The notes below the pieces were generated by a model. That model was not told the origin of the DNA, searched no databases, and was given only the letters and a program-made list of their open reading frames with translations. DNA of 64,000 bases from Proteromonas lacertae (Eukaryota), in contig NGBS01000872.1 in the NCBI GenBank assembly GCA_002245135.1, forward strand, positions 310,001 through 374,000, given 5' to 3'. This document shows positions 19,518 through 55,146 of the stretch, piece after piece (position 1 is the stretch's first letter; every line of letters starts with the position of its first letter). Both the position numbers and the translations under genes were made by a program.

Positions 19518-22500
19518 TTAATTATTCAAATTACTATTAACAGCATCAGAATCACTTTTTGCTGCTCCAACATTTAAAGGTGGAAGTTTTGCCACTTCTG
19601 GTCTTGACATAATTCTTGAATGTTTTGCAGTTGGATTGGCAAATGATTTTCTTTGATACAGCGGAGGAGATACACATGAATCACCAGTAGAATCTGAGCT
19701 AGATAATAAATCTGATTTTCTTGTTGAACATGTTGATAATTCATTCTCAGAAGATGGACTTTCTGTATTAAATACACCTAAAACATCGTTACTATTATTA
19801 TTCTTATCAACTGGTGATTGATCCGTGGATGGAATTGTAGCTAAATGTCTTTTCTTATTTCTCTTAGGTGTTGGTGGGAATTTCAATGTATTATGATTTC
19901 CAGAGGAAGATGCAGATGATGATAAAGACATGGATGGATTAATAAAAGATGGATTTATTTCAGATTCACCAATTGGAGTTGATAATGTTGGAGATAACAT
20001 TGTAGAGGTAGTTGGCATTTCTGGTGGAATATATCTACTATTGGAATGATTATTTGGAGATGTAAAGAACTCTCTTGTTCTTTTACCTTTCTGATTGAGA
20101 ATGGATGGTTTTGTTTTTAATGATGCTGTTCTATAAGATGGGAAGGAGAGAGGTGATGGAGTTGATCCATCACTCATTAATCTTTCATTATAAACACCTG
20201 AATTGAAATGATAAGTATTAGAAGCAGTTGTTGATTGTGTAAGTTGAGATAAATGAACATTTCTGAATGAATATGGAATGATTTTAACATAGGAAGCAAT
20301 TGATTTACATCCAAATATAATTGCTAATAATGCCATTATTACAATAGTACCGATATTAGCCAATGTTGTAATTACAGTTAAAATAACTTCATGTTCAGGA
20401 TACATACTAAATGCATCTGCAGTAAACAATGTAGCCAATGATGATAACATTGAAAATACTTCCACATAATTGAACAAATTATTGGTATAAGGTCTACAAG
20501 CTAAATGAAAGAATAACGCAAGTATAAATATAACTTGAGCAACACGATTCTGCACATATCCATCACTAATAATAACTTCAACAACCACTAACAAGATTCT
20601 TTTCACAATCTCATAAATTTGCCATAAATAAGTAAATCTCTTTGTATCATAACCAGAAAATAAAAAACCATACTTAACAACAATTGAATCATGCTTTATT
20701 TTTTCTATTAACAATATATAAAAATAACAATACTTTTTGATCTAACTAAAATCAATCCAAACATAATGGGAATACCAAATGCAAAAAATATACATCCAAT
20801 AATGCCTAACGCAAATAACAATTTATATTGTACAGATGATGAACTGATACTATAATCTGATTCTAAATATGTTTCTCCTTGTATTTCAACGGTTTTAAAT
20901 AATCTCAACACAGTCAAAACAATATCTTTATGAATAAAGAATAAATACACAACAATTCCTCTTATAAAAGCTGGTTTATATCTACTCTTTATCATATTCA
21001 AATCTTCTTCGTCATAATGATGGTGATCAACAATCGCTTTCCTCAATAATAACATAACTGCACTAATTACTGGAGCTAAAATTGGTAAAAATATAGTAAT
21101 AATTGCTAATGGAGTAAATTGTCCTCCAAAAACACATCTAAATGGAACAGTTGTTAAAGTAGCAGCATCTCCTAAGAATGTAAAACCTAAAATATTCATT
21201 GTAACATCAGGATTCTTTAACACATAAGCATTTATAATACCTTGTATTTGAGTGAAATTTAATATAATACGAATCATTACTGATACACGACTATGTTAAT
21301 AATAATAATAATAATAATAATATATACTCAAATGACCATTTCTTCTTTTTACCAAGATTGGTTTTAAAATATATATTTACACCAACATAAAAGAATGGTA
21401 AAACTAACTGTATAACAACAATACATATAGAAATCCATTGTGGATAACATTTAGTACAACCATGAGATGATTGGACATATCCTTTTCCACACAATGCACA
21501 TAAAGGACCTTCATAACCAGAAGTACATTTCAATTCACCTTCATCATCAGATAAACAAGATTGACTATTCAAGCACTTTACAATAATAGAATCATGAGTT
21601 AGGTTTGATACTGTTACGTTTGACCAATATCCATTCATTATTCTACACTCTCCACCTCTACAATCAACACCATCTGGAACTTTCCAACATTCACTTTCTC
21701 CTTCTTCAGTGAATGATCCAACAGGACATAATAAACAAGTCTTTGAACCAGAATCAGCTGAATAATAACCTCTATCACACTTAATACAACTACTTTGTCC
21801 AATGGATGGTTGATAAGTGCCTGGTTCACATTCAGTACATTTTGCTGATCCTTCTACTGATGAATAAGTACCTGGATTACAGATTTCACATCTTGACATT
21901 AAACTTCTATTAAAATAATAACAACAATATTTATTAATATATTTATACGTTCTATATTGACCTATTGGACAAGCAACACATTGAGTTTGATTCTTTTCAC
22001 TAATAAAACCATCATCACATTTTGTACAATTATTTCCACTTCCATAATACATCTCATTACACCAACACCTTTTATAATTGTCATAATTTATATCAACTGT
22101 GATAGATTTATCATGAAATGATATTCCTGGACAAGTATATGACTTATTACTCTTACTATTCAATGATACATAAAAATATATAATAGAATATATACTCTAA
22201 TCTAGAATCATCGCTATATAAGAAGGAAGGTAAAACTTCAGAATGTAATTGATTATTTAATAAATCTAATACATAAACTTGTGAATATATTTCGGGAATT
22301 TCACCTGAAAATTGGTTTGACTGAGCTTGAAACACAATCAATGATACTGGTAAATTATAAGGTAATTCTCCATCAATATCATTAGAAACAACATCAAACA
22401 AAGTTACTTTTTCTAAACCTTTTCCTTCATAAGCAACACCTTTAATCAAATAAGAAAACATAAAACCAAAATCAGTGAAAGGACCAGTCAAATTATTACC

Positions 22501-25500
22501 TCTAAAATGAACTTCTCTCAGGTTTTCTAATGTTAATAATGGATTGATTAAATCATTAACACTCATGCTCAGCATATTATAAGATAAATCAATCAATTCT
22601 AAATTCCTCATAAATGGTGATACTTTTGTTCTTCTTAAGTAATGATGGAAATTATAAGTTGCAGGATTATATCTGTTTTCCCATTCTACTGGAAATGGAG
22701 TATTGATTAAATTGTGACTTAACAACAACTTTACAATTGGACAGTCTGGTGTAAATGATGGAATTGGTCCTTCAATACGATTATTGGATAAATCTAACAC
22801 TTTCAATGAATCCATATACATAAATGGTATTCTTCCTGAGATGTTGTTATTGTTCAAATATATCTCTTCAACTGTATTTTGAGTGTGATACTTTTCCTCA
22901 ATAACACCTGTAAAATCATTATTAGCTAACTTTATTACTTTTCTGAATAATAGTATATAATTAAATATATAAAAATACAGATTTGAAGTACTCCAAATAT
23001 AATCTAAAACTGTGCTAATATCACCTTTATAATTATTGTTTGATAATCCTAAAGACTTTAGTTTCTTTAATCTAGCAAAGTTTGGAATTTCTCCTTCTAA
23101 TTGATTGTTAGATACATCAAATTCCCTATTAAAACAATAAACATTGAATATATATATATATATATATATATACTCTAAACTATCCATATCAGAGAAAGGA
23201 ACTTGGTATATGACCAGAAAATCTGTTATTCTGCAACTTTATATTCTTCAAATTTCGTAAAGCAGTTAATTGAGATGGTATTTCACCTTCCAATTGATTA
23301 TTATCCAATATAATTGATTCAAGACTTGTCATTGAATCAATATTATACGGAATTCTACCAGAAATGTTGGTATATCTTATACTAAGATAAACCAAGTCAG
23401 TTAATAATGAGATTTTAGTAGGAATTGTACCAGATAATGGATTATTTCCTATCATTAATGTTTGTAAATATAAACAATCAGAATAATCAGGAATACTTCC
23501 AGTGAAGTAATTATCATTTAATATCAATTGTTCTAGATTATTACCATTGCAAGGACGTTGTGGAATAAGACCAGTAAATTGATTATAACCTAAATCTAAT
23601 ACTTTCAAATTAGGCATTTCAAATAAACATTCTGGAATTGAACCAGTAAAGTTGTTTTTGCCTAACTTTAATTCACTTCTATATATATATATATAATATA
23701 TATAAAAACTAATAAATATACAATTTACGCATATTACATATTGTTTCTGGTAATTCTCCTTCAAATCCAACTAATGAAGCAGTTAGCTTTAATAAAGCAG
23801 TTGGATAAAAACCATCATAACCATAATCACTACAATTAGGAAATATTGATAAATGAGTTCCTTGAAATTTTAATACTGACAAAGTAGTTGTATTGCATAT
23901 GCTGTGAGGAATTTCACCATTTAAATGTGCATTGTCTGCTATTGCAACTTCATTTATTTTTGGTGCATGGAACATATTTTCGGGAATCTTTGTTAGATTA
24001 CTATTATATACATAAATCAACTGTAATTCTTTCCATTCATTGAAATTGGATGGTAATTCTTTCAAATATGGACAATTATATGCATATAGTTTCTGAATAC
24101 TTGTTTTACTCAAACTATTGGGAATTGATTCAATATTTGTCTCTTTAATATTGAAATATGATAAATTTGTTGATTTCTCTAATCCTTCTGGGAATGTACT
24201 AATTGGATTGCCATATATATCTAATCTAGTCAATTTAGGCAGATTGAATCTTATTAAATATGACAATGAGTTGTTATTTAAAAGCAATTGTCCAATATTT
24301 GGATGATTCGTCACAGTAAGCGGTATTTCTTCTAATAAATTATCATTTAATCTTAAATCACTCAAGTTTGGTGCATTATTAAAACTATTAGGTAAATTAT
24401 CAATACCACATCTTTCTAGTCTCAATAATGTTATATTATTTAAGTTAATAATACTTGGTACTCTCTTAATTGGATTATTACTCAGATTTATTACATTTAC
24501 ATTTGTATTTGAAAAGAAATTTGAATTTAATTCACTAATTTCATTACCATCTAAATATAATTCACTTAAACTAGTCAAATGGTCAATTGTTCCAATAGAT
24601 TTTATTTTATTCTCAAATAACGATAATATTACTACTTTAGGTAAATCTATATAAGGAATTTCAGTTAATTCATTATATTCAGCTAAGAATAACTGAATTT
24701 CTGGATGTTTAAAAAGATTTGGATCTAAATACCTAATTTGATTATAACATACACTAAATAAATGTAAATTTGGAGAAGTAGTGAAATTATAAGGAATACT
24801 CTTTATTATATTATCTTTCAAAATCAATTCCTCTAACTTCGGCATATTAGGTTCAGGTATTGAAGCTATTTGATTGCCAGCTAAATCTAATTCTTCCTAA
24901 ATACTGTAAGTTGAAAAGAGTATTTGGTATTGTACTGATGGAATTATTCATAAAACTAACTAACTGTAGTTTTGGTGCTTTGTCAAATGTATTTGATAGT
25001 GTTGTTATATCATTATTATATACTTTTAATGTCTTTAATACAGGTAAATTTAATATATCAGGAAAAGACTTAATTTTATTTTTTATTAAATTTACAGTTT
25101 CTAATTTTGATAAACTCATTAACGATGATGGAATTTCAGTCAATAAATTCGCATTAAATGACACAGAACGCAGTATTGGAGCTTTATCAAATGTATTTGG
25201 TAAAGATGTCAATAAATTTGTACTGAAATTCATATACTCTAATTTTGGCATATTTACAATATCTGGTAATGAATAAATCTTATTTTTATAAGCAACAATT
25301 GTTCTTAATTCATTACAATTAAGCAGAGAAGAAGGAAACGAACTTAATCGATTATCATAAACATTAATGTAAGTTAACTTACTACATCCTAACGAATTAG
25401 GGATTTCTCTTAAATCATTTTTATGTAAATCTAAATACAATAACGAAGGTAGATTAACACTCTTCGGTAAACGAACTATACTATTATCATAACCTTGTAT

Positions 25501-26281
25501 CATTTCTAACTGTTGTAATCCAAATAATGTTTCTGGTAAATCAATTAATGAATTGCCGTAAAAGAAAATTGTATTTAACAGTGGAGTATGGTCAAAACTA
25601 TCAGGAATATTTCTTAAACTATTACTCCCTATATTGAGATAGGTTAAAGCAGGAAGATTCCAGTAATTGGGTAAGGAACTGATCTTATTCTTTTGTATAT
25701 ACATCTGTTCTAATGTTGGAATTGAAAATAAACTGGATGGTACTTCAGTGAGAGAATTATCATCAATTCTAATGATTTTCAACTTTTTGAAGTTTTTAAA
25801 TGAGTCTGGTAAATCAGAAATACGATTATTTTGTAACAGCAATTCTTCAATTTCGTTATCTGCATCTGGGGATTGAAAAATTGTGATTGTATTATTGGTT
25901 AAATCAACTTTCGACAATTTGTAAATACTTTTGGGGTATTTCGTGATTTTGTTGTCTTTAAGGTAAATATTAAATATTTGAGTTAATCTGCCAATACTTT
26001 CAGGAATTTCTCCACTCAATCCATTATTTGTACTAAAATGTATAAACTAAGAAATATACAGTGTAAGACTAAATGAAGCACAATCCACTCCTATTCTTTT
26101 ACCTACACAATAAATAATACAAATAAAAAAATATACAAATGTCGTTATTGTCCCAGCCAGTTTTATTTATCCAATTATTGCCGTTAGTTGATTCAAAAAG
26201 CTCATCAAGAATCTGCGCATCATCCGCATTAACCAAATTATACAGTAGCAAGATAAAGATAGACAGTAGTTTTAAAATCAT
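19518..26281 (-). CDS. Receptor-like protein: signal peptide, N-cap, long LRR array, Cys-rich TNFR/ephrin-like repeats, multi-pass (about 7) TM domain, Ser/Pro-rich tail
   Basis: MILKLLSIFILLLYNLVNA signal peptide; ILDELFESTNGNNWINKTGW cap; LxxLxLxxNxL(SG)xIP repeats; CEPGTYQPSIGQSSCIKC repeats; several hydrophobic helices ending with KYGFLFSGY...WQIYEIVKR...CRPY. Joined through short introns and two single-base corrections (~24896, ~23195). Confidence 0.85.
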
Positions 26282-29216: not shown

Positions 29217-29309
29217 TTTAATATATTATGTTTTGGGATATTTACATAAAATCAAAATTTAAATTGGTGTTATTTTTTGGCTCAAACTAATTTCTTCTAA
29301 AATCTGCTA

Positions 29310-30199
29310 ATGAACGGATTGTTTGATTCAAGTGACTTGTATATTTTATTAGTGATATATATTACTTCTTAGAACTCCTGATGTTCAGCGTTACATTGTT
29401 AGAGTCTACAGAGATATGTTAGAGGCTTTTAGTTGTGCATTTATTGGTGTTATCGCATCACAGTATGTATTATCATATTATTGTTATAGAATACTTGGTT
29501 GGGGAAGCACTGTAGCGACTATTGCTACATTTATACTAATATTTGTGTTTATGTCTGCAAAGAATAAAGAATGGCCATTCAGATTACTTGCTTTTTGTAT
29601 AGGATTTGAAATGGGCGATCTTATCTCTGTGTTTATCAAATATAATCCATCTGTATTGATGAATGCACTGTTTGCTACTATTGTTGTTTTTGCATGCTTT
29701 ACACTCTCTGCATTGATGAGTATATCATTTTCTTATTATGTCTTTATTAGATAAATCAAGATCTTACTTATATTTAAGTGGTATATTATCATCTGTACTT
29801 TTATTCATGGTTATTGCTCCAATATTAGGTTGGTTCTTCTCAATCTTCAGAAGTGATTCATATTTAATGATTGGTGTAGGATTATTCTGTTTTTCATTAT
29901 ACATTTTATATGATACTCAGTTAATGATAGAAAGAGCAAAAATGTATGGAGGAATTAGACGTAGACCTCCAACATATGGATTTGGTAGTTGGGGAGGAAA
30001 TGATGGTGGAGGTTATGATGGAGGTAATGATGCTGGTGATTGGGGTGATAGAGGTAATCAATTTGGAGATGATAAGTATGGAGGAAGTCAACATTATGTT
30101 GATGCTTTGAATTTGTTTTTAGATTTTGTCAATTTATTTATCACATTATTGCAATTAATGCAGAAGTTGGATGAGAATAAAAACAAAAAGAAGAGATAA
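29310..30199 (+). CDS. BI-1: Bax inhibitor-1 / TMBIM family membrane protein
   Basis: NPSVLMNALFATIVVFACFTLSAL, RSYLYLSGILSS, YILYDTQLMIERA, ALNLFLDFVNLF and a basic C-terminal KKKR. ATG at 29310; short introns. Confidence 0.9.
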
Positions 30200-30318: not shown

Positions 30319-31145
30319 TTAATCTTGCTTTATTTTGTTTCTAATAAACACTCCTGTTGCAATAACTACAACCAATGTCATAGCAAGCAATATTCCAGTC
30401 TGCATTACACAAAGTTCCATTGAAAGATTGGTCTATAATAATTAAAAACAATATCTATACTATTCCACATGCTACTAAATGTAATAGAAGTATCAATAAA
30501 GCTATATAGTAATTAGATGATGCATAACTATAAAAGGCAAATATATTGAAACAAGTGTTAAGTAATGTGAATGAAAAACATCTCAACGCCATTATTAATG
30601 CATGGGGGTAGTAACAACCCTTTTCAAAGTTTACACCATCTTCTCTAGTTGACATAAATATATCACCATATCTAAAACAGAATTATATAATATTATGATA
30701 AATACAAAAATATAGACTCAGCTACTATTATTCCACTTGCAGAAGCTAATTAAGAATATATTAAGTTATTTTAATACATAATCCAAATGCTACCAAGTTT
30801 TTCTTTGATGGATCTCTTGGAACTGATATTGTAGCTTTAGAAAATGCAAAAGCATATATAAAATATCCAATGTAACGAGATAATTCTGTAAGAAACGCTG
30901 ATAAATAGATGTTACTCTATTTTTACTAGATTTGCTTATATATATACAAATATTTTTCCAAGCATAAGTGTAAGAGCAAATAAAATAGTCCACACAAAAG
31001 CTCTACATTATAATATCAATAAATAAAAATACGAAATAACTGTAAGTATAGATAAATATGACAATTGCAATGTTGAAAAATAGAATATAGCAACAGTAGG
31101 ACTGTATGCTATAAGCAAACAACCAGCACTAAAGCAGAAACTCAT
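30319..31145 (-). CDS. APH1: Gamma-secretase subunit APH-1-like protein
   Basis: Spliced N-terminus MSFCFSAGCLLIAYSPTVAIFYF...LSILTVISAFVW, then FLTELSRY and a late His-containing helix (LLLHLVA), resembling APH-1. Confidence 0.7.
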
Positions 31146-31219
31146 TAAACACAAAATAATTCAGAATTGTTTTTCAAGCTTTATTCAAGTTTTTTCTTGT
31201 TTTTTTTATTCTTTGAAAT

Positions 31220-31469
31220 ATGTGCTGAGTTATCATCAATGCCGTAAATCAGATAGGGTATCCTATCGCTGGCTTGGTATATCTTATTTTGACATTATTA
31301 GATCGTCATTTGTTTTATTGCAGTTATAGTTTTTTCAATTTTGTATGATTTGACAGGTTTAGGAATTTCACTTGGTTGTAGTGTTGTTCTAATTATAGTA
31401 GCATTTCTCGCAAAGTGGTTCTACACAAAATCTGTTACTACAGAAAAGAAAGATGATGTGCCAGTATAA
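31220..31469 (+). CDS. Candidate 74-aa membrane selenoprotein with Sec (UGA) at codon 3 (M-C-U)
   Basis: Exon 1 31220-31276 (ATG TGC TGA GTT...), 25-nt intron 31277-31301 (GTAT...TTAG), exon 2 31302-31469 ending TAA. Two hydrophobic helices; SECIS immediately downstream. Confidence 0.8.
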
Positions 31470-31553
31470 TCATTTTAATGTAATATTGGATGATTATTTT
31501 ATCATAAAGTAAAAAATACAGGATAAAATATGATGAAATATTAATTAGAATGA
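31470..31553 (+). promoter_or_regulatory. Eukaryotic type II SECIS element
   Basis: Core ATGAT (31490-31494) / TGAT (31531-31534). Helix II TATTTTATC/GATAAAATA is a perfect 9 bp. AAA lies 12 nt after ATGA. Apical mini-stem GTA/TAC around an A5 loop. Helix I TAATATT/AATATTA is extended by TCATTTTAAT/ATTAGAATGA. Confidence 0.85.
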
Positions 31554-31571: not shown

Positions 31572-32808
31572 TTAATATTTTGCATGAAATGGTATTTTTG
31601 TTGCCCAAGCAATTGATTGATGATAAGGTGGAATTGGAGCACCTATATCTTTTGCAATATGCCTTGGATGGATTGAATTTCTAAATGTAGCTTTTCCACA
31701 TAATCTATTTCAATAAAATAACAACAATATACATTAAATCTGCTTCTCCTTTTTCAATTAACTTATTAGCCACTTTACCATTACAAATACCTCCAACAGC
31801 AGCAACTGCAACACCTCTTTCTTTGATAGTTTTTGCATATCTTAATTGTTCATCCCAATTCTTTGGTTTTACTTGTTCATAAATCAAACCACCAGCTGAA
31901 ACATCTATAATATCAACTCCATAGTTAGTATATAAATCTTTAGCTAATGCAGCTGCATCATTAATTGTAATACCACCTTCAGCATAATCACTGGCACTAA
32001 TACGAACAAATAATGGCATAGTATTTGGAATTACAATTCGAATGTTTGTACAAATCTCTCTCAAGAAACGAGTACGATTTTCAAATGAACCACCATAACC
32101 ATCAACTCTTTTATTGGACAATGGAGATAAAAACTGATGAATTAAAAAACCATGTCCTGCATGGATTTCAATAAAATCATATCCAATCGTCACTGCTGAT
32201 TGTGCTGCAACAACAAATTGTTGGATAATTTGTTGGATTTGAACTTCAGATAATTCTACTGGAGGTGGAAAACTATCATATGGAATTGGACTTGGAGCAA
32301 ATAATGGCCACTGAGTTGCTAATGGAGACATGACTTTATCACCTTCTGCATTTGTTGTTAATATAAATCCACCTTTTCTACCAGCATGATTTAACTATTT
32401 GATTTTATTGTTACTATATGTATATATATATACTTGAATTCCAAATAAACATCCTTCTAGATGTACATAATCTATTACTCTCTTTAACTCCGGAAATACA
32501 CTTTCATCATATATAATCAAATCGCTATTCAGAATTACATGTTATTTTATAATAATATACTTTGGAGTTGTTCTTCCTTCTGGACAAATTGCTGTAGATT
32601 CCTGTATTATGTATCCATACCCTTCCATTGCTAATCTACCGTAATGTACTAAATGAAAATCTTTTAAATGACCATTATCACTATCATACTATTATTCATT
32701 TATTATCATTTCTTTTCATACAGTACAGAGAGCTGATACTCCTAAACGATTTGGAAACTTTACACCTCTTATTAATATAGGAGTGAATAGATTATTCTTT
32801 TCTGGCAT
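31572..32808 (-). CDS. NADH:flavin oxidoreductase (Old Yellow Enzyme, YqjM/NamA-like), copy 1
   Basis: LFTPILIRGVKFPNRLGVSALC, HLVHYG, QLNHAGRK, IEIHAGHGFLIHQFLSPLSNKRVDGYGGSFENRTRF; several short introns. Confidence 0.9.
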
Positions 32809-33137
32809 GATTGAATATCTGCAGAAGAATTCGCCAAAATTTGTTCTGAGTAATAAATTATAAAATTGAGATATTAATAATCATTAAATCATTTAGTTAT
32901 TTGTTGTCTATTTAAATTGTACCATTTTCATCCTTCTTTTGACTAAGATATTTTTATTAAATAAAATCCTAAAAAGTATTTAGCAATATAATAAAGTATA
33001 GCATTTTTGGCTAATCTACAATTTACTACACCTCATCTATTTTTAAATAGCTTTGAAAAATAGAAAAAACAATATTTCAGAAATATATCCGTTTTATTTA
33101 GATTTAAAATTCTTTTTTTTTCTGTCATTAAAGTCAA

Positions 33138-34376
33138 ATGTCAAATATATTCACTCCATATAAGTTAAGAGGTTTAACTTTCCCAAACAGGTTGGGTATT
33201 CCTCCAATGTGTTTGGTATTATATAAAATTTGATTTATAGTATGAAGCCAAAGATGGTCATCCTACTGATTTTCATATTGTGAGATATGGTATTGGAATA
33301 AACATATATTTGAATAGGATCTTACGCTTTAGCAGGTTATGGATTTATGATTCAAGAAGCTACTGCTGTTTGTCCAAAAGGAAGAATTAGTTATAAGTAT
33401 AGTAAAATAAAATATTATTTTAGAGATCTTGGTTTATGGGATGATTTATTTATTCCAGATTATAAAAGAATAGTTGACTTTGTACATAATGAAGGGTGTA
33501 AAATAGGTATACAGATAGGTCATGCAGGAAGAAAAGGGTCAGAAGTCCCTCCTGGTAGTGATAAATCTAAACGTGATATTATTCCATCAAAATGAAGAAG
33601 GTGGTTGGGAATCAGTCGCTCCAAGTGCAATTGCATATGGTAGTTGGCCTACACCTCATGAATTAACAATTGAAGAGATAAAAGAGATAGTAAAACAATT
33701 CAAAGAAACAGCCGAAAGAGCAGTAAAATGTGGATATGATTTTATAGAAATTCATGGTGCTCATGGATATTTAATCAATGATTTCTTATCTCCATTAAGT
33801 AATCATCGTAAAGATGAATATGGTGTAGATAGAACGAAATTATTAAAAGATATTTGTGTAGAAGTGAGAAAAGTAATTCCAAAAGAAATGCCTTTATTTG
33901 TTCGATTAAGTTGTACCGATTATAAAGAAGGTGGAACTGTTTTAGACGATACATTGAAGTTAGTAAAAGAATTACATGAAATATATGAAGTAGATTTAAT
34001 AAATGCAAGTAGTGCTGGTTTAGTTGAAGATCAAAAAATCCCATCAAATTGGGATCATCAATTACCTTATGCTAAAGCTATTCATAAGATGGGAATTCCA
34101 AGTGCAGCAGTTGGTGGAATATGTGATGGTAAAATTGCGAATGATTTAATAGTGAATGATGAAGCTGATTTAGTGTTAATCGGAAGAGGAGTGTTAAGAG
34201 ATGCTTTCTTCCCAAGACATGTAGCTCAAGATTTAGGATTAGAAATACCTGCTTATCATGATAGTTATCGTTGGGCAGTAAGAAAACCTGACTATTCAAA
34301 TATTAAAAGACTTACAATATCTGATAATATTGTTTTAATTGTTATTTCTTTTGCATTTATTGGTTGGTATAAATAA
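33138..34376 (+). CDS. NADH:flavin oxidoreductase (OYE, YqjM/NamA-like), copy 2
   Basis: IFTPYKLRGLTFPNRLGIPPMC, IEIHGAHGYLINDFLSPLSNHRKDEYG, LIGRGVLRD. Extra T at 33593 relative to copy 3. The true stop may be 34304-34306. Confidence 0.9.
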
Positions 34377-35732
34377 TAATCGGAATTAGAAATTTCTATT
34401 ATAATATTTTGAATAATACCAATTATATCTATTCCATTATAACCTTTTAATATCTATTATGTCTAATAAAATCTTAAATCCTGTATTCCCAATTGGATTA
34501 ATAATATACAACCAAACAAACCATTCATATTACCAATGTATTGCATACTGAACAAATTACATCACATTTATCACTATTTGATTACAGGCTTTAAATGTTA
34601 AATCACCTCTTCTAAATGACGAACAACAATCAAACTATAACGAGTTGTTTTCATGACATTTTAATATCATTATTCTTTCATTTCATTGTATATTCGTTAC
34701 TTTCATAGTTCTAATCACATTTTATGCTGTAAAACAAATCATCATCAGTATTACATTTTTTCAGCTTTTTCTCAAATCTAAAATTAACATAACTGCTATA
34801 CTTTAGCATTATGTTGTAATATTGAGGATATTAAATCACTCACAAGAGTAAAGATATTTCTAAAAATAGAAAATGGTATAACGGAATATATATTTTATAT
34901 TAATTTACATTGTTAAATAGACAATTTATGACAAACATTCACGAGTTATAATTTATACCAACCAATAAATATAAGAGAATAGCAATTAAAACAATATTAT
35001 CAGATATTGTAAGTCTTTTAATATTTTGGAATAGTCAGGTTTTTTTACTGCCCAACGATAACTATCATGATAGCCAGGCATTTCTAATCCTAAATCTTGA
35101 GCTACATGTCTTGGGAAGAAAGCATCTCTTAACACTCCTCTTCCGATTAACACTAAATCAGCTTCATCATTCACTATTAAATCATTCGCAATTTTACCAT
35201 CACATATTCCACCAACTGCTGCACTTGGAATTCCCATCTTATGAATAACTTTAGCATAAGGTAATTGATGATCCCAATTTGATGGGATTTTTTGATCTTC
35301 AACTAAACCAGCACTACTTGCATTTATTAAATCTACTTCATATTTTTCATGTAATTCTTTTACTAACTTCAATGTATCGTCTAAAACAGTTCCACCTTCT
35401 TTATAATCGGTACAACTTAATCGAACAAATAAAGGCATTTCTTTTGGAATTACTTTTCTCACTTCTACACAAATATCTTTTAATAATTTCGTTCTATCTA
35501 CACCATATTCATCTTTACGATGATTACTTAATGGAGATAAGAAATCATTGATTAAATATCCATGAGCACCATGAATTTCTATAAAATCATATCCACATTT
35601 TACTGCTCTTTCGGCTGTTTCTTTGAATTGTTTTACTATCTCTTTTATCTCTTCAATTGTTAATTCATGAGGTGTAGGCCAACTACCATATGCAATTGCA
35701 CTTGGAGCGACTGATTCCCAACCACCTTCTTC
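33594..35732. repeat. Near-identical inverted repeat (~750-bp arms) formed by the 3' parts of OYE copies 2 and 3
   Basis: 33594-~34340 is the reverse complement of ~34986-35732 with only scattered mismatches; the spacer is about 600 bp. Confidence 0.9.
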
Positions 35733-36198
35733 TTTTGTAAGAATGTGATGATAATTAATGTAACCAAGACATTGTGATGCTTTTCTTCCTGCGTGAGCTA
35801 TTTGAACGCCTATTTTACACCCTTCATTATGAATTAAATCTACAAGTCTCTTATATTCTGGAATAAATAAATCATCCCATAAACCAAGATCTCTAATCAT
35901 ATTAATAAATAATTAACAATACCCTGGTGTAATCATTCCTACTTTACAAACGGCGGTAACTTCTTGGATTATAAAACCAAATCCTTTCAAAGCATAAGAT
36001 CCTAAAGATAATATAACAAATCCATTGTATACCGTAAAACAATAAGTGAGTATCGGTTGGATGACCATCTTTACCTTCCAACTATTAATCACAATAATCC
36101 TGTATTATTTATACTATATCCATTGGTGGAATACCTAATCTGTTAGGAAATGTCACTCCACGTAATTTAAAAGGTGAAAAAAGATTTGTGTCTGACAT
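34986..36198 (-). CDS. NADH:flavin oxidoreductase (OYE, YqjM/NamA-like), copy 3
   Basis: LFSPFKLRGVTFPNRLGIPPMD, QIAHAGRKAS, IEIHGAHGYL. ATG at 36198. The true stop may be 35018-35020. Confidence 0.9.
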
Positions 36199-36344
36199 AA
36201 TCTCAATTTATTAAAATCTATTTTGATTTTTTAATTATTTTGGTGAATGAGATAGATATTTGCATTATAAAATAACATTATCGTTGTTATATAGTAAAAA
36301 TAATACCAACCATAAAACAAAAATATTCAAAAAATACATACAAC

Positions 36345-38838: not shown

Positions 38839-41800
38839 ATGGAGACTGTAGTATGTATTATTAAACCTAACATGATTGAAGAGGAATGGATTATTGATAA
38901 AGCTTTAAAACCTCAAAAGAAGAAGAAAGAAAAGAAACCAAAGGAAGAAGGAGAGGAAGATGAAGAACAAGAGCAAGAAGAAGAACAGGAAGAGGAAGAG
39001 GAAGAAGAACCAGAAGAGGAGGAACAAGAACCAGAAGAAGAGGAGGAAGAAGGTGATGTATATCTTATTTTTATTCAATATATCAAATAGATACCAAAAG
39101 ATCCAAAACCAAAAAAGAAGAAGATGTACAAAATGGCTGATGATATTAGTCAAGTTATTCTTAAAGACATAACAGATCATGGATTAACAATAGTAAAGAA
39201 GAACCTGATTACATTAAGTCTTGCTCAATCAGAATACATATTTAACCATTTTCAAGGCAATTACAGACAGCAGGTAATTGACCAAATGAGTAATAATATG
39301 TCAATGGCGTTATTAATCCAAGGAGAGAATGCAATTGAAAGAATCAACGAATTAGCTGGTGATTTTGATCCACATGTTGCTAGAAAGGTTGATATAGAGA
39401 AACATGGTAATGAAATATTAGAATGGACATGGAGAACCAGATGGGGAAGAAGCAGAGTTAATAATGTTGTTTATATAAGTCCAGACAAATACAATGTAAT
39501 GAGAGAAGAGAAAACAATTTTCCCACCAAAATTCAAATGGGAGAGAACTTATGCAATGATTAAACCAGATATTACAAAAATCAATAAAGAAGATGAGATA
39601 ATTAGCAGAATTGAGTCATTAGGTTTCATTATTGTCGCACAAAAGAAGGAGACATTAACAAGAGAAAAAGCAATGGAATTCTACAAAGAACACGAAGGAA
39701 AACCATTTTTCGAAACATTAGTGACATTCATGACATCAGGTCCAGTAGTCGCTTTAGCATTAGAGAAATTAGATTGTATCAGAGAATGGAGAATCGCAGC
39801 AGGTCCAACCAATACATTTAGAGCAAGAGAAGTAGCTCCAGGATCCTTAAGAGCATTATATGGTACAGATGGAACTCAAAATGCAGTACATGGTAGTGAC
39901 TGTATTGAAAGTGCAAATAGAGAGTTAACCTTCTGGTTCCCAGAGCCATTATTTGCAGAAAGAACATTAGCAATGATTAAGCCAAAAACATCTGATGAAT
40001 ATTGCAATGAAATTAAAGATATTATCAAAACTAATAATTTTGATATTATTGCTGAGAAGAGAGCAACTTTTACAAAAGAAATGGCTGAAGGATTTTATGA
40101 AATGCACAAAGGTAAACCATTTTTCAATAAATTAATTACTTACATGACATCTGGACCAGTATATGCAATGGTATTATCCAAACCAGCAGCTATTAGACAT
40201 TGGAGAATGTTATGTGGACCAACTAATAGTTTCCAAGCCAAAGAACATCAACCATGGACTATTAGAGCAATGTATGGTATTGATGGTACAAGAAACGCAG
40301 TTCATGGAAGTGATTGTATTGTGAATGCTGAGAGAGAAATAGGATTCTTCTTCCCTTACCTTTCAAAGTCTCCATTGTTTATGGGTAATAATGCAAAGAC
40401 TTATTTATTATCATTACCTTCATTATATAATGATCCAAAACCAAATCCTGAGACTTTACATGATTTATTGATTAAAGGTTTGACTCAGCTTGCTAAAGAT
40501 AAACCAGCAGGATTACAAGCAGTTCAATATTTAGGTGAATGGTTATTAAATAATAATCCAAACCAACCAACATTTAGATATATTCCTAAAGCACCATCTT
40601 CTAAGAGAATTACAGTTGTATTTATATTAGGAGGACCAGGTTCAGGTAAAGGTACACAATGTGAGAAAGTAGTAAAAGAATTCGAATTTACACATTTATC
40701 AACAGGTGATTTGTTAAGAGAAGAAGTAGAAAGTGGATCTAGTTTAGGTCAAAATATTGCTGCATTAATGAAAGAAGGTAAATTAGTACCAAATTCAATA
40801 GTCTTGAGTTTATTAAAGAAAGCTATTCATTCAGGTGTTTCTGATAAGTTCTTAATTGATGGATTCCCAAGAGAATTTGATCAAATTAAGCTATTCGAAA
40901 AAGAAGTTGGTCCTTATGCATTTGCTATCTACTTTGATTGTCCTGATTCAATCTTAACTGAAAGATGTTTAGAAAGAGGAAAATCAAGTGGAAGAGTAGA
41001 TGATAATGAAGAATCTATTAAAAAGAGAATAAAGATATTCCATCAACAATCTTTACCAGCTATAGATCACTTCAAACAAATTGGTAAATTACGTCGTATT
41101 GATGCTAATAAAGATATTGATGCAATCTATGAACAAACAAGAAAGCACTTTGTAACTATAATGAAGAATGATGGTGTGATGATTACTCCATTACCACCAT
41201 TATTACCAACAATAGTGTTTATATTAGGAGGACCAGGTTCAGGTAAAGGTACACAATGTGATAAATTAGTAAGGAATTATGGATTTACACATCTCTCCAC
41301 ATGGTGATTTATTAAGAGAAGAAGTAGCTAAAGGTAATAGTGAACATTCACAAGAGTTGAAAGAAATAATGGGTAAAGGCGATTTAGTTCCAACTAATAT
41401 TGTTTTAGATTTATTAAAGAATGCTATTGAAACTACTCAATCTGATAAGTTCCTAATTGATGGTTTCCCAAGAGATTTAGATCAAGCTTATTTATTTGAA
41501 AAACAAGTTGGTAAATGTAGTTATGTATTATATTATGATTGTCCAACTGAAATAATGACTCAAAGAATATTAGAAAGAGGAAAGACCAGTGGAAGAACTG
41601 ATGATAATGAAGAAACTGCATTAAGAAGAATGAGAGTATTTGAAGAACAAACAAAACCAGTTGTTAATTATTATCGTAAACTTGGTTTATTAAGAACAGT
41701 AGATGCATCTGGTTCACCTGGTGAAGTATATGATTGCTACTAGAAAATATGTAAATCCAACATTCGTATTAGCATTAGGAAGACCTGGCAGTGGTGTAAG

Positions 41801-44051
41801 TACCATTGTAGAGAAGTTAAGTAAACAATATAGTTATGAAATCTTAGATATTAATGAATTATTAAGAATAGAAGTCTCATTACAAAGTGATATTGGTAGA
41901 GATATTGATGAATTCTTAAGAGATCATAGAATTATATCTGTTTCTATGTTAATTAATGTTGTAAGAAGTGCTATTGCTAGAACTAATAATGATCATTTCA
42001 TATTAATGAACTTCCCAAGAACAAAAGAACAAATGGCTGCTTTTGAAGAAGAATATGGAATGGTTGATTTCATAGTAGAAGTAAGTTGTCCAAGTGATAT
42101 ATGTGAGAAGAGATTGAAATTAAGAGCAGGTGCACAAGATGGTCCAGGTCAAATAAAGAATAGATTATTATACTATGAAAACTATATTGAACCATTATTA
42201 CAATCATATAGAAAGATAGGTGTTGTACAGAAAGTAAGAGGAGAATTAACAATGGAACAAAGTTATGCAGATGCACAGAATATCTTCCAAAAAGAAGTGA
42301 TTTCAATTGCCAATATATCTGAAGATGAAGTTAATTTAGATGAAATCGATTCATTCTGTAGTCAATATGGTTATACAGTTATTCATTCAATTGATGAATT
42401 AGTAGATGCTAGTGTAATGAGAGGTACAAAATATGGTCAAGAAGTCTCACAATTATTAGCAAATCAACAAATTATACCCAATAGTTTAATATGTAATATA
42501 TTACATGAATATTTAATACACACAAGAGATAGAAGATTCATTATTATTAATTACCCAAATACTAAGGATCAAGCTATAGAATATGATAATATAATTGGAC
42601 CATTAGAGAAATGGATTTATGTATCTAAAGATTATGTATCACCTGATTCAATATCAACATTACCTTATTCATATGAAAGTATTGATGAACATATTAGAGA
42701 ATTGACCCATTACTATGAACCAAGTGGCAGAGTAAGAATCTGTCCATTTAGAAATGGTAATTTAGTGGAAGGATTAAAGGAACATATAGAAAGAACATTG
42801 ATGTGTGTTATTAATGAACCATTCTGTGATACAACTGATATTATAAGTAAATATGCTAAGGCATATAATTACCATATTATTAATAAAGTAGATTTATTAG
42901 AAGGTGAAAGTGAAAGAGATGTTGATTTCAAAGAAGAATATGAGAAATATAAACAAGGTGATCATGTTTTACCACAAAAGGCTATTATTAACTTAATACA
43001 AAGATTAATGTATATATCTCATGATAAGAGATATGTGATTAATGAATTCCCCAATACTGATTTAGAATATGAAAGTATTCCAGAAATATACAACCATGAA
43101 TATATCAAAGCGATGATGCAAGAAGATGCATTGATTAAACATATAAAGAAATCATTAAAACCAAAGAGAAAGGTAAATGAAGATGGTGAGGAAGAAGAAG
43201 GAGATGAAGAAGAGCCAGAAGAAGAGGAGGAAGAAGAACCTGAACCAGAACCAGAGAATGAAGGCGAAGAAGGTGAAGAACCTGAGGAAGAATTAGATGA
43301 AGATGGAAATCCAATTCCAAAACCACCAAAGAAGAAGAAGATTCCAGCTAATGTAGAGAAAGTATTAAATGAATTCAATGATAAATACAGCATATTGTAT
43401 AATAAAATAAAAGAAAATGAAAGATTCTATAAAGAAGTTGATTTGAATAATGAGAGAAGTTTGACTGGTATTATTGATGAAATGAAACCAGAAATTAATT
43501 TATTAATAAGTCCAGTTGGATGTTTAAAGACTGAAGTTTGTACTATGTTAACATTACAGAAAGGATATGAATATATAAAAGTGACAAATATATTACAAGA
43601 AGCAAGTGAGATTGATGATGAACAAGGAATGGTTATAAGAGAATGTTTTAGTAAACGAAAGACTGTACCAATTGTAATAACATTGAATATATTAAGAAAA
43701 GCAATTCTAAGAAGTGAATTCCATAAATTTATAATTGATGGTTATCCAAGAACTGTAAGTGATGGTACACCAACTGTACATGAACAAGTAGAAGCTTTAG
43801 AGAAAGAAATTGGTAAAATAAATATTGTATTCTCATTCAGTGCTGATAAAACAAAGAGACAAACAAGAATGGAAGAATTAACACCAGCTCAATTTGCTGC
43901 TAAAGAAGAGATTTATGAGAGAGAGAAATTCCCAGTTGTTAGTTATTTCAAGAATTTAGATAGTGAAGTACCAGCTTTGATATTAAGTGACTGTAACGAA
44001 GGAAGTGATTCAATTTATCAAGACATTGAAGGTTATTTTGTTGGTTTTTAA
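38839..44051 (+). CDS. ~1,720-aa fusion: three NDK-like domains, a Dpy-30-like motif and multiple adenylate/UMP-CMP kinase domains
   Basis: ERTYAMIKPD...NAVHGSD twice plus one degenerate NDK; LIKGLTQLAKDKPAGLQAVQYLGEWLL; FILGGPGSGKGTQC...HLSTGDLLR...FLIDGFPR twice, then degenerate AK repeats. One intron (~39058-39090) and extra T at 41302 and ~41735. Confidence 0.85.
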
Positions 44052-48558: not shown

Positions 48559-50463
48559 ATGAAGGTTTATATCCTGCTATCTATACTCTTTACCTTCGTT
48601 CTTTGCACTGAGTGTCCTAATGGATGCTCAGGGACATGGAATTTGCAGTTCTAATAGTGAATGTATCTGTAATCGACAAGTAGGAGTTGGTTTAAACCAA
48701 GGTGACTTTGAAGAATTTAGTTACACTGGAGCTGATTGTTCTGAAAGTATATTTAGTGTTATATTTTACTCTGTTAGGATTATGTCCAAAAGGTGGATCT
48801 TTTTCTGCAACTCAAAGTGAATCTTGGTGGGAAGTCGATAGTGAAACATATAAAGCATATTTTTTCAATAAAAGATGCTTTGGAGTAAAAGCAAAAGACC
48901 CTGAAGGTAGTCAATCAGATACTTTTACTATTGGTGAGAATTATAAATATGTAGGTAATAGATACATATTAATTGAAGGAGATGTACCAGAAATAACAAC
49001 TTATAGATCAGGTGGAATTGTTAATTGTTATAAAGAACAAACTGCAAATACTCTTGTTGGTTCATACCGTATTTACACCACTGCAAATGATGTTAATAGT
49101 AAATACACTGTTTTGATAGGAGAAGAAATATATGAAATACAGATGAAATAAAGAATTATTGGAAAGCAAGATAGTGATTCTAATCCTACAATATGGAAAG
49201 AATGATGAAGGTAAACAAGTTGTATATTATTGTAAAGGCAGTTAGAACATATAGAGATATATCATTATTAGCAGCATTACCAATCAATACAGAAGAAACA
49301 ACTAAAGAAAAAGCAGGTAATTGGACATTTGAAGCACAAGCAGATGATAAGACTGGTAATGATAAAACAGATATTAATTATGCTCATTTATATTATTCAT
49401 ACTTTGGTACAGTTACTGATAGACCTATTAATGTGATTATGTCCTAAAAAAAGTGGAGAAATGCAAATTTATCAAACAAATATAACAACAACTGCAGATT
49501 CGCAAAAGAATATACAGTTACAATTAATAAAGTTCCTGATACATATGGTAATTGTTTCTTATTATATTCACCAGTAAATGGCAATTTAGATGAAACAACA
49601 TCTGAAATAAGATATTTAATAGGTAAAGAAAACAAATTTGGTGATAAAGTCGATGATTCTGCATTTATATGGAAGAAAGCTGGAGATGATAAAGTGTTTG
49701 ACTTAACAAAGACATTATTAACAATAAAACAAGTAGCAGATGATAAAAAAATTGTTCTTGATAATAGAGATTCAAGTATAGGTGAAATAAAGAATAGTTT
49801 ATCTGATGGAAGTGCTGCTTTAATGTATAGAATAGATTTATATTCAAAAGAACCTGCAACAACATTAAATCCAATTAGAAATCAAATTGTACATATAGGA
49901 ATCATCAAACTCGAGGTATGAAATAAAGATGAATTAACATTATCTGTTATTGAAGATGTTGATGAGACTATCATGTGTGATGATATTAATACTACTCCAG
50001 AACACCATCAACAGCTGATCCTGATTGTACTAATACAATAATTGGATTGCAATTATTTCAAGAAGGACCTCATGGTGCAGTTGAATGTAGTGGAGTAGGT
50101 GAATGTGATAGACAAACAGGTAAATGCCAATGTCCAGTTGGATATCAAGGATCTGCTTGTCAAAGAACTTCTTGTCCAAATAATTGTAGTGGAAAGGGTA
50201 AATGTGTTGTTTCTAAAGGTAATGATATGTATGGAGATGATATAATCTATAAATGTGAATGTGATGGTGGTTTTAGAGGTTCTGATTGTTCCAAATTTGA
50301 ATGTCCATCCAAAGAAGATCCAAAGAAAGCAACAAATACAAATGACAAAGATGAATTTCGAGATTGTAGTGGTAGAGGAATTTGTGATTATGAAACAGGA
50401 CTTTGTAGTTGTTTTGAAGGATATAGTGGAGAAGCCTGTGATAAGATTACTTCAATATATTAA
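48559..50463 (+). CDS. Secreted EGF-repeat protein, Sig/Ocm mastigoneme-like, copy 1 (multiple frame disruptions)
   Basis: Signal peptide, N-terminal EGF (CPNGCS...TGADCS...CPKG) and C-terminal ECSGVGECDRQTG...CPNNCSG...ECPSKEDP...RDCSGRGICDY. Several shifts and stops lie between 48631 and 50010. Confidence 0.7.
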
Positions 50464-50523
50464 TTAATATTATTTACTATTATTATTATTTTTAAAAACA
50501 AAATAAATATATATAATAAATTT

Positions 50524-52979
50524 TTATTCTTTAAGTTTCAATTTTAAAAATTCATCCAACTTTTCATATATTGCTTTCCCATTATTAGAAACACCATGTT
50601 TTTCACTTGGAAATATCATAATATCAGGAATAATTGCATTTGAGTATAACTCTTGAACAATTTTACCAAAATGTCTAAACAACACATTATCATCTTGATA
50701 TCCATGAATTAACAATATTGGACACTATGGAATAAATATATAAAACAATAAAATATACTTTAATATCTTTAAGATTATGAATCAATCTCGAGTTTTTATA
50801 CACTTCAGGATATTCTTGTGGTTTACCTAAATATCTCTCAGTATAACCAGTATCATAATCACACCAATCACTTACAGCACCACCTGCAATGCAACACTTC
50901 ATCTTTGGATATTTACTGGATAATAATAATGACATATAACCACCATAACTCCATCCATATACAGCAATTCTATCTGGATTTGACCATTTTCATTTCTGTT
51001 AATACTTCTATTCCTTTTATTTGATCTTCTACTTCTACAGTTCCAAATGCATGGTATAAATAATGATCAAATTTTACACCTCTCAATTCACTACCTCTAT
51101 TATCACATATCCATACGTTATAACCTCTTTGGGCATATGATTCACCAATACCTCTTGAATAATATTTATTACTGACTAATCTACATCCAGGACCACCATA
51201 TACATAGATTAATGTTGGATTGTCATAGGAATTATCATTTCCTTTTCCTTTGAAGAATAACCCATATAATGTTTCATCTGTTGATGATTTGAAGGTGATA
51301 ACTTGAGGTTTGATAAACCCTTTGGCTTCTTTATCACATCCTAACTCATAATACTTTATTATTTCAGCTATTCATTATAATAAACTAATAATAATATTTA
51401 TATATACTTTCTTGATATCTTTCTGCATATTTAATATTCACTAATTGATAAGATAATGGTGATTCAAATGATTCAGTAGTTAATATTCCTCTTAATCCAT
51501 TATGTGAAATGACAAAGTCATTTGATGTATTATTCATTGTTAATCGATGAGGTAATGGTATTTCATCACTATGAAATGACTTTAATGGAGAGACATAAAT
51601 ATGCTTTTCCAGTGGAGAATCTAAATAACCAGAATAAAATCTATTTATAATAATAATAATAATTGTATACATTAATTCTCTATCTGAATCAATATGTAAT
51701 ATTTGAAATACCTCACCATTACCATAAGTGATTTGATTTATTAATTTTGATTCTTTACCAGTCCATTGATACAAGTATAAATGATTAAAACCATTTCTTT
51801 GAGAGGAACATATAATATGAAATGAATTATTCTTACTATCACTTTCTAACTTACAACTTTCAAATGATAAATATCTCACATTAACATATTGTGGATGTTC
51901 ATCAGTCATTATTATATTATATTTCTTCGTTGTTAAATCATATCTGATTAAATGCAATTTGGTTTGTTCTCTATTTAATAACATAACACCAATAGAATTA
52001 TCACAAAACCATTTTACTTGTAATATATAATAATCATTGAAATAATGTTCAATTTCATCCAACCAAACAGTTTCTTTAGTTTCTACGTTTATAACGGCTA
52101 GTTTTTCAATTGCATTGGGTTTACCAGCGAAGCAGAAGTGATTATCAATGTGACTGGTTTGATCTTCATCCAACTATATATATATCATAATAATATATAT
52201 ATTATACTAAATTGTTAAACACATACACTGGTATATGTTTCACATTATTTTGACAATAGGCAATGTATTTACCAGTATTATCCCACCAGTAACCAACATA
52301 TCTATCAAACTCTTCTCTTATAATATAATCTGCAGTTCCTTACACATATATATGAAGGTTATAACAATAATATTAATTTATAAAAAAGATATATTTGAAA
52401 TTCCATTTCCACCATCTTTTGTAAGTTGATCTACTTCACCATTTGCTATATTGTACAAGTAGATATTATCATTTGATACATAGGAAATTTTACTTCCATC
52501 AGGATTATACTATTATTTATTAATTCTGATTATTATATACATAAACACAAGATGCACCATCTAAAACAATATTTTCAACACACTCTTTATCACTAACATT
52601 ATCCATATAATAGACTGGTCCATCATCTGGAATAACAACAGAATTACGACCAGATTGCAAGGATGACCTAATAGACTATAAAAATTATGTCATACCATTT
52701 TGGCAAACGTATTTCTCTATCATGGCTGTTTCTATAATCACAAGCACTAGTATATTAGTAATTCTATGAATACATTGAGATAGTATTATCATAAAGCACT
52801 GGTTCATTATCAACTAGTTTTGCAAAATGAACTATATAGTCATCTTCGGGTGTTGTAAAGAAAATCTCTTGATCATCACTGCTGAACTTAAAATTTTCAA
52901 CATTTGCTCTATTCAATGAATAATAATAATTTACAATGATATACAATTCATTTTTTGAGAAGAACGTTTCTTTTGACAT
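50524..52979 (-). CDS. Dipeptidyl peptidase IV family (S9B) serine peptidase, DPP8/9-like (no signal anchor)
   Basis: YVYGGPG, DNRGS, GWSYGGY nucleophile, YDTGYTERYLG, IHGYQDDNV, FPSEKHG. Confidence 0.9.
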
Positions 52980-53149
52980 TTCAAACTTGTTTGAGAATGA
53001 TTTAAAGCAAAATGATTGGTTAGTTATATTTTGTAAAGATCTTTATCCCCATCATGTAAAAAACATTCTTAAACTATAGTACATACTTAATTATGGAAGT
53101 TTATTTCAAATAATACTTAAAAAAATAGAAAAACAAATAAATTAAAAAA

Positions 53150-55003
53150 TTAATACATTGAAACTATTTTATCACAGGCTTCTCCACTAAATCCATCAAA
53201 ACAATTACAAATACCACTATCATAATCACAAATTCCTCTACCACTACAATCTCGAAATTCACTTTCTTTATCTCCTTCTTTATTTGTTGCTTTCTTTGGA
53301 TCTTCTTTGGATGGACATTCAAATTTGGAACAATCAGAACCTCGGAATCCACCATCACATACACAGTGGTATAACACTTCATTTCCGTAGATTGAATCTG
53401 AAGAAGTATATGGTAAACATTTACCTTTTCCACTACAATTATTTGGACAAGAAGTTCTTTGACAAGCAGATCCTTGATATCCAACTGGACATTGACATTT
53501 ACCTGTTTGTCTATCACATTCACCTACTCCACTACATTCAACTGCACCATGAGGTCCTTCTTGGAATAATTGCAATGCATAAATCACTCTTTCTTGTCCC
53601 ATTAATAAATCCTTTTCTTCTTCAGTTGAATCAGTATCTAAAGTTGAATCATTACTTTCTACATCAGTCATATTATCATAAACATCTTCATTTACAATAG
53701 TAATTGGCTCATAAAAAGCAATATGAATAATTTCATCATTTTCATCAAATTCATATTTTGATATATGAAGTTTCTGCATTCTGATTGGATAAAATGTTTC
53801 ATCATCATTTAATGTGAATTCATATAACATAGCAGAACCACCAACTGATATAATATCTTTAATTTCACCAACACTTGTATCTCTAATAGTAAATGTATCT
53901 TTAATATCAAATGCATTTAATTGTAAAGAAATGTTAAAATATAAATCATCTTCTAATAATGTTGAACTATTAGACCATAACATCACAGAATTCTTTAATA
54001 ATTTACCAAAATCACCTTCTTCACCCATAAAATTGAATAATTCTGATTTTTCTAAGGTTATATTTCCATTCTTAATTGAATATAACATAAAACATTGACC
54101 TACACTATGAATTGTCTTTATTCTAATATTATCATTTTCTATCACCAAATCTGTTTGAAATTCTTTCAATTTTCCATCATAATCTATACATCCAAATGAT
54201 ATTTTTCTAACTAATGTAACATCATTTACTATAAAATCATTAATGATTAAACTCAATATTCCTAAGTAATTATCAACAGTATTTTCAAATACACTTCTCA
54301 TTTGTAAATGTACGACATCTCTGTATTCTCCTTTACTATTGATATCACTAATAGGCCATAATCCGTATAATGAATAATCTTGACGAAGATAATACACTCT
54401 ACACCAAATATCTTTTGTTTGATCATTTTCTATTTCTTCTTGACTTACTGTCTTTGGATACATCTGAATACCAAATAGAATTGGTTGATCGATTGATGTG
54501 TATCTGTCTACAGCATTTATCATGTATGTTGAATAGAATTTAGTCATTTCTTGATCTAGATAACAACTAAAATGTCCACCAGCTTGAAATCTGTCTAATA
54601 AACTTATATCACTAAGCGGTAAAAGCATTTTTTCTCCTCCAGATACAAAATATTCAGCAGAATTGACAGTATATTGTTCATTATTCTTAAACCTTTCAAA
54701 ATGATAAGCATTATTATCTTCATTCCACCAGTAAGAATTGGTAGTAGTATAAGGGTGTGAAGCGCCTTTTGGACACATTCCTATTCCATTTTAGTTATTA
54801 AAAGAAGAAATACGTTTAGAACAATCAGATCCAGTATAATATTCTTCTTCATAATTACCTTTATTTAGGCCAAGTCCAATTTGTTTATTACAATAACATT
54901 TCCTGTTTTTACCGCATGTTCCATGTCCAGAACAGTCATTAGGACAGTTTACTGATAATACCATACAGAAAAACAAAGCAAGTGTGACAAAAACTCTATT
55001 CAT
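53150..55003 (-). CDS. Secreted EGF-repeat protein, Sig/Ocm mastigoneme-like, copy 2
   Basis: Signal peptide, CPNDCSGHGTC...YTGSDCS, one intron, a ~400-aa central region and three C-terminal EGF-like units. Confidence 0.85.
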
Positions 55004-55146
55004 CGTAACTAACTCAAAATCTGAAACGACTATTTTTGATTTTTGAATTTAACCTCATTTTATTATTGACATGAATGTTTTTTGTTAAATCATATCACAT
55101 ATAATATATATTAAAATAATAACATTTAAAATTAGAGCTAAATAAG

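Follow-up and report, generated by a model that had tools for sequence, protein, structure and literature searches.

Eukaryotic selenoprotein genes with a type II SECIS element share an in-frame UGA and, at a permissive distance from it, a hairpin with a UGAN/KGAW core, helix II, apical adenines and helix III (PMC3753652). All of these features recur at a locus of Proteromonas lacertae lying in the 64,000-nucleotide stretch of DNA that was analysed here as a whole (the window). The locus differs from the described type II genes in that the UGA is the third codon, the very AT-rich element is missed by Rfam, and the hairpin begins one base past the stop codon, occupying all the space up to a convergent gene. 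We consider it likely that this is a real selenoprotein gene with Sec at codon 3.

MSP, which according to the available text of PMC2375036 occurs in Ostreococcus, Chlamydomonas, Volvox and Dictyostelium, is likewise a protist membrane selenoprotein in which Sec adjoins Cys. However, the Sec-Cys of MSP is part of the motif G-[SA]-U-C-W-P, which lies within a hydrophobic stretch, whereas the candidate carries Cys-Sec at residues 2–3 and no W-P, and MSP has about 170–230 residues with several helices and a C-terminal Cys-bearing loop, compared with 74 residues here. An identity with MSP, which the earlier note had named as a risk to novelty, was rejected on this published description, since motif, length and Sec position all differ; Ostreococcus hypothetical proteins 1–3, as described there, are also unlike the candidate. 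SELENOK and SELENOS share with it a small, membrane-anchored body and a cytosolic Sec, the latter by prediction in our case. They possess one helix, and their Sec follows a Gly/Pro/basic tail close to the C-terminal end; with Sec at residue 3, two predicted helices and no Pfam match for the second exon, identity with either was rejected as well. For the chemistry, high-molecular-weight thioredoxin reductase may serve as a model, as it also has a vicinal Cys-Sec pair at a free chain end (available part of PMC3129679), although it is a large soluble flavoenzyme and its motif is C-terminal. Two such reductases with C-terminal Cys-Sec are described for Blastocystis ST7 in the same part of that paper, together with a Sec-form SPS2 in the accessible portion of the PMC4561486 supplement. 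ST7 is classed as Sec-coding in the supplementary material of PMC3753652 available to us and is unnamed in the portions of the PMC5330540 supplements at hand.

Gene model and SECIS element

The earlier note proposed a frame of 74 amino acids that opens with Met-Cys-UGA and is interrupted by a single 25-nt intron (Table 1). Its coordinates, codon count and TAA were all reproduced (ATG TGC TGA at 31220–31228, TAA at 31467–31469, 74 codons after splicing). Exon 2 has no in-frame ATG of its own, and the plus strand of the gap between the divergent starts contains no other ATG. The intron, which had been called canonical, ranks first among all GT-AG pairs of 18–69 nt in 31147–31470, with a score inside the range of the training introns (7.9–23.7). 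These were 39 hand-picked introns of 25–42 nt from the window, 37 of them starting with GTAT; as they were chosen by a GTA start, an AG end, a GC content of at most 25% and a length of at most 45 nt, the set is biased to this type. For Blastocystis, the part of the literature available to us gives a peak of intron length at 30–32 nt. Such introns, together with the EGF-repeat and NDK/Dpy-30/adenylate-kinase genes of the window, would fit a Blastocystis- or Proteromonas-like stramenopile.

Table 1. Coordinates of the candidate gene and the features around it (positions within the window).
Feature	Position	Strand	Remarks
Divergent neighbour, intron-rich membrane-protein gene	30319..31145	-	Context
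Gap between divergent starts	31146..31219	.	74 nt, GC 19%; likely bidirectional promoter / 5' UTR
Exon 1	31220..31276	+	19 codons; Met-Cys-UGA, predicted amphipathic stretch, start of helix 1
In-frame TGA, codon 3	31226..31228	+	Putative selenocysteine; 236 nt to SECIS core in spliced mRNA
Possible in-frame hairpin, SRE-like, weak	31235..31276	+	Begins 6 nt past the UGA in spliced mRNA
Intron	31277..31301	+	25 nt, GT-AG (GTAT...TTAG), phase 0, score 14.6
Exon 2	31302..31469	+	55 codons + TAA; second part of helix 1, then a short loop, helix 2 and a charged tail with lysines
Type II eukaryotic SECIS	31470..31553	+	Core UGAN/KGAW per PMC3753652; strict SECISearch pattern passed
Convergent old-yellow-enzyme-like gene, 3' part	31572..32394	-	PF00724, E 3.8e-37

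The window is made up of compact genes with short AT-rich introns, and its GC content is 22–38% per 2 kb. Against this background, the GC contents of exon 1 (44%) and exon 2 (31%) differ from those of the flanks and the intron (17–20%). The codon-usage score of exon 2 is 0.03 in the proposed frame and −0.29 and −0.48 in the other two, compared with 0.25 ± 0.15 for in-frame and −0.38 ± 0.18 for off-frame reference pieces. Exon 1 scores −0.41, as non-coding frames do (in-frame reference 0.25 ± 0.23), because its GC3 is unusual (53% versus 15% in the genes of the window); its overall composition differs from that of intron and intergenic DNA too.

The hairpin behind the stop codon shows each of the SECIS hallmarks that the earlier note had listed. 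Helix I comprises 17 bp with one bulge and is followed by a small internal loop; ATGAT at 31490 faces TGAT at 31531–31534, forming a UGAU/UGAU quartet; helix II consists of nine Watson–Crick pairs out of nine; and AAA follows 12 nt past ATGA, below a 3-bp apical mini-stem. The adenines thus lie within the 11–13 nt interval, and core, helix II and helix I all conform to the definition. The minimum free energy is −17.4 kcal/mol (z −3.9; none of 200 dinucleotide shuffles as stable), with a weak apical stem (−4.4 kcal/mol). A SECIS search had been suggested, and in our own implementation of the strict SECISearch1 pattern, taken from the available supplement of PMC3753652, the element is matched. 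The covariance models of Rfam 15 gave no SECIS match at E values up to 10; SECIS elements outside metazoans are the hardest to predict (PMC3753652). In the spliced mRNA, the distance between UGA and SECIS exceeds the 204 nt found optimal for mammalian GPx1 (PMC12628022).

The strict pattern is common in this AT-rich DNA: the window has 26 matches, and a shuffled window has 13. Only one of the 26 has a lower energy than the candidate, and 25 shuffled windows gave 21 matches that reach −17.4 kcal/mol (0.84 each). By rough arithmetic, however, the chance that such a match lies in sense orientation no more than about 100 nt past the stop is about 7e-4. The improbable part is not the pattern but its position, on the sense strand and one base behind an open reading frame with a single UGA. 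Such a frame lies upstream of only two of the 26 matches, namely the candidate and a second, weak element of −12.0 kcal/mol that follows a gene with an ordinary TAA stop. A tighter grammar, fitted post hoc to the element, found no match in 40 shuffled windows. Polyadenylation ahead of the hairpin, with TTTGTT-like elements taken as its putative mark, was tentatively rejected: no such element was seen by eye between the stop codon and 31553, and the first is at 31597. The Blastocystis motif TGTTTGTT occurs nine times in the 64 kb, compared with one occurrence per 2.8–3.1 kb in three Blastocystis subtypes, so that a placement close to Blastocystis stays tentative.

The stop codon of the convergent gene lies 18 nt past the SECIS, so both 3' UTRs must overlap. 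One could accordingly read the hairpin as an AT-rich 3'-end structure of this oxidoreductase gene on the opposite strand, and the open reading frame as fortuitous, all the more as strict-pattern matches are frequent in the DNA of the window. We regard this as very improbable: the SECIS core and the AAA can be read on the plus strand only, exon 2 has one frame with a coding-like score, both exons stand out in GC content from their surroundings, and a gap of 324 nt would otherwise be unexplained in so compact a genome.

Probable recoding of the third codon

A UGA at codon 3 combined with a canonical SECIS past the stop codon makes a selenoprotein likely, and the recoding of this TGA as Sec, claimed in the earlier note, is supported by our analysis. 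The four splice models that avoid the TGA all require an intron scoring −11.2, far from the training introns, while the SECIS is canonical and correctly placed. A genome-wide reassignment of UGA was rejected: 25 long open reading frames with 7,748 codons contain 48 TGG and 172 Cys codons and no TGA, and although such frames are stop-free by definition, the argument lies in their length of up to 780 codons. The 64-kb window contains no detectable tRNA.

The distance from the start codon speaks against efficient recoding. In mammalian GPx1, a UGA less than 21 nt from the AUG is poorly decoded (PMC12628022), and here the distance is 6 nt. For Euplotes SelW expressed in human cells, the available part of PMC3737529 describes poorer Sec insertion at codon 9 than at codon 85. 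These limits are efficiency effects in mammalian systems and not prohibitions, but they have lowered our confidence.

The same position would suit a selenium-gated switch, in which Sec is inserted but dispensable and the protein is made only when Sec-tRNA is plentiful. Termination so close to the AUG would be almost free, Sec insertion near the start is reported to be inefficient, and exon 1 contains a possible hairpin shortly past the UGA. A selenocysteine redefinition element (SRE), a conserved stem-loop just 3' of the UGA, boosts recoding (PMC5727441). For the exon 1 hairpin such a role is only a lead: 41 of 3000 synonymous recodings with the codon usage of the window are equally stable, and after GC matching the numbers rise to 149 of 2000 and 248 of 2000, which is not significant. 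Moreover, the neighbouring Cys points to chemistry and our full-text literature search found no precedent, and we think a switch quite unlikely.

Doubt could also be cast on the TGA itself. Otherwise intact genes of the window contain about six apparent frameshifts of one base (near 17260, 23200, 24900, 33590, 41300 and 41725), most of which look by eye like an additional base. They show that the assembly bears errors, which are likely of the long-read type. The genes affected are a coiled-coil kinesin tail, an LRR protein (twice), oxidoreductase copy 2 and an NDK/adenylate kinase gene (twice). If the TGA had arisen by a sequencing error or a recent nonsense mutation, the locus would encode a Cys-Cys or frame-shifted microprotein or be a pseudogene, and the hairpin would be a relic or a coincidence. 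The nearby frameshifts and the atypical codon usage of exon 1 are in line with such an error, and a model with one base missing reaches the same stop after 65–67 codons. Yet this rescue model predicts one helix and loses helix 1, and its intron of 47 or 53 nt exceeds the 25–42 nt of the training set, which was itself limited to 45 nt. An extra base near the ATG, the prevalent type of visible error, ends the frame after 8 codons. A substitution at the TGA would leave the SECIS unexplained, and every version of the error requires a high-grade SECIS to have arisen by chance in the 102-nt gap past the same stop, with the low probability estimated above. Taken together, we judge an error or a decayed gene unlikely, and Sec at codon 3 remains our preferred reading.

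Predicted protein and possible relatives

The product is likely a selenoprotein of about 8 kDa and 74 residues, predicted to form a two-helix membrane hairpin. The two hydrophobic helices claimed earlier were confirmed as strong membrane helices in the hydropathy profile (19-residue window), which peaks at 2.97 for residues 16–34 and at 2.49 for residues 38–56. Helix 1 spans the splice junction and is unbroken in the 25-nt-intron model only. A single-sequence AlphaFold model of exon 2 alone is a helical hairpin with a pLDDT of 74.7. Cys23 and Cys45 fall within the helices, and four lysines follow helix 2 while the loop has none.

Size, two helices and an early vicinal Cys pair call to mind the small mercury transporters MerF and MerT. 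MerF is a two-helix protein of about 80 residues whose vicinal Cys pair lies close to its N-terminus. MerF and MerT are bacterial, and their Cys pair is located in helix 1, about 20 residues into the chain. By analogy, the same selenoprotein could bind or pass on soft metals (Hg, Cu, Ag) through Cys-Sec and the two additional Cys within its helices; a Cys-Sec dipeptide is known from a bacterial MerB-like selenoprotein (available part of bioRxiv 10.1101/2022.07.06.499078). Against this, neither exon 2 nor, searched separately, the unspliced N-terminal read matched a Mer family in Pfam or NCBIfam at E values up to 10, and metal handling appears unlikely to us.

A search for homologues had been recommended in the earlier note. 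It was run mostly with exon 2 alone as the query and revealed no relative with UGA or Cys at position 3. In word searches of 5.8 billion proteins, neither exon 2 nor the unspliced N-terminal read had a relative, and phmmer against 1.84 billion representatives had no match at E 0.001. The best scores in the ESM Atlas (0.84 and 0.81) are below the reliable range. In tblastn-confirmed contig scans, none of the pattern matches in metagenomes (587), prokaryotes (588) and viruses (52) held up, and N-terminal DNA patterns gave no plausible relative among the loci listed, at least 119, nor among further sets of 10 and 24 loci. Pfam, NCBIfam and PDB sequence searches yielded sub-threshold hydrophobic matches only, and fold searches with the exon 2 model yielded generic helical hairpins only (Foldseek E 8.9; best Z 6.6). 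All of these searches, for which the unspliced N-terminus or exon 2 served as query, are weak when the query is so short and hydrophobic. The collections are poor in DNA of this lineage: an exon of the neighbouring Bax-inhibitor gene matched only two proteins.

The literature gave a similar picture. Our full-text search found no Met-Cys-Sec membrane microprotein, and the string 'MCU' is absent from the searched, partly available supplements of PMC3753652 outside file 1. Three new algal selenoprotein families are of the thioredoxin-fold or AhpC type according to the available part of PMC7539508, and the selenoprotein list in the accessible part of PMC7435645 names no such family. The proposal of an undescribed family stands insofar as no relative and no known family was matched; it rests on a single gene, since no homologue was found. 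We consider the gene a good candidate for a new selenoprotein family with Sec at codon 3.

Proposed function and genomic surroundings

Overall, we lean towards a two-helix membrane selenoprotein whose N-terminal Cys-Sec would act as a membrane-anchored redox centre; given Sec, a redox role is probable by analogy with thioredoxin reductase. We propose that (i) the 25-nt intron would be spliced out of an mRNA that extends beyond 31553; (ii) SBP2 and eEFSec, bound to the SECIS, would insert Sec at codon 3, perhaps inefficiently, whereby a missed insertion would cost only a Met-Cys dipeptide because the UGA sits so early; (iii) methionine aminopeptidase would strip the Met, as is the established rule when Cys is at position 2, leaving a free amine-Cys-Sec end; (iv) both termini would be cytosolic, so that the helical hairpin would put Cys-Sec at the cytosolic membrane face; (v) the pair would alternate between the selenol-thiol and the selenenylsulfide form, as does the C-terminal Cys-Sec of thioredoxin reductase; and (vi) electrons would be handed to peroxides or to a membrane partner, with re-reduction by the thioredoxin system. 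The topology in (iv) is predicted by the positive-inside rule from the distribution of the lysines.

Another conceivable role for the Cys-Sec end is that of an acylation site or acyl relay, the protein being a membrane scaffold or acyl carrier. Palmitoylation is common at N-terminal Cys pairs that adjoin a membrane helix, Met-Cys-Cys motifs at the N-terminus being an example, and SelK assists it as the partner of a palmitoyl transferase. SelK, however, has one helix and a C-terminal Sec, and we hold this role, like the switch, to be rather improbable; the redox centre remains the preferred function.

The gene starts 74 nt from the divergent ATG of its minus-strand neighbour, which begins at 31145, in agreement with the earlier note; the APH-1 label that the note gave this neighbour is putative and based on resemblance. 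A CAAGC promoter motif had been reported 45 nt upstream of the start. It is present as TCAAGCT at 31174, with a T-rich tract behind it, but argues only weakly for a promoter, since CAAGC occurs 63 times in the window; CAAGC with a T tract precedes two of 11 other starts inspected. For the longer CAAGCT, 10 of 28 sites in the window have a T-rich tract and lie 30–51 nt before an ATG, the downstream ATGs being partly checked. Sites are located at 26399, 31175, 37364, 46668 and 57179 on the plus strand and at 8177, 38719 and 57170 on the minus strand. CAAGCT with a T-rich tract, often between divergent genes, is a candidate core-promoter element.

On the other side, three old-yellow-enzyme-like copies in alternating orientation occupy 31572–36200; copies 2 and 3 are nearly identical, and copy 1 is the PF00724 gene of Table 1. 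They could represent a redox neighbourhood for the candidate, possibly by chance. A Bax-inhibitor-1 family gene (29300–30199, plus strand) has a Gly/Asp-rich insertion before its last helix, and its exon has one 78% identical fragment in Logan assemblies; a close relative has therefore been sequenced. Further afield, a very large receptor-like LRR protein is encoded at 19518–26046 (minus strand); it has Cys-rich repeats, and its C-terminal part spans the membrane several times. A very long gene at 38839–44051 (plus strand) combines three NDK domains with a Dpy-30 motif and several adenylate-kinase domains, an architecture that we presume to be akin to axonemal NME5/AK proteins and that would be notable if the organism lacked a flagellum. 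At 48700–57121, a cluster of at least three secreted proteins with teneurin-like EGF repeats at both ends presumably resembles stramenopile hair (mastigoneme) proteins.

With moderate confidence, we read the candidate as the founding member of an undescribed family in a gut protist that lives anaerobically. Sec would be decoded at codon 3, and the Met-free N-terminal Cys-Sec would form a redox or oxygen-sensing centre tethered to the membrane, a mirror image of the C-terminal motif of thioredoxin reductase. To our knowledge, new eukaryotic selenoprotein families are rare. Seblastian-type pipelines require an annotated Cys homologue (PMC3753652) and therefore cannot see a gene of 74 codons that is split by an intron and has its UGA at codon 3; further hidden selenoprotein genes of this kind may exist. 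If Sec is indeed decoded at codon 3, this would be far inside the AUG distance thought necessary, and the gene offers a natural test of the smallest distance from the AUG at which a UGA is recoded, and of whether Cys-Sec at an N-terminus has a distinct chemistry. In an oxygen-sensitive gut protist, its product would be a candidate for an antioxidant of the membrane or a sensor of oxygen.
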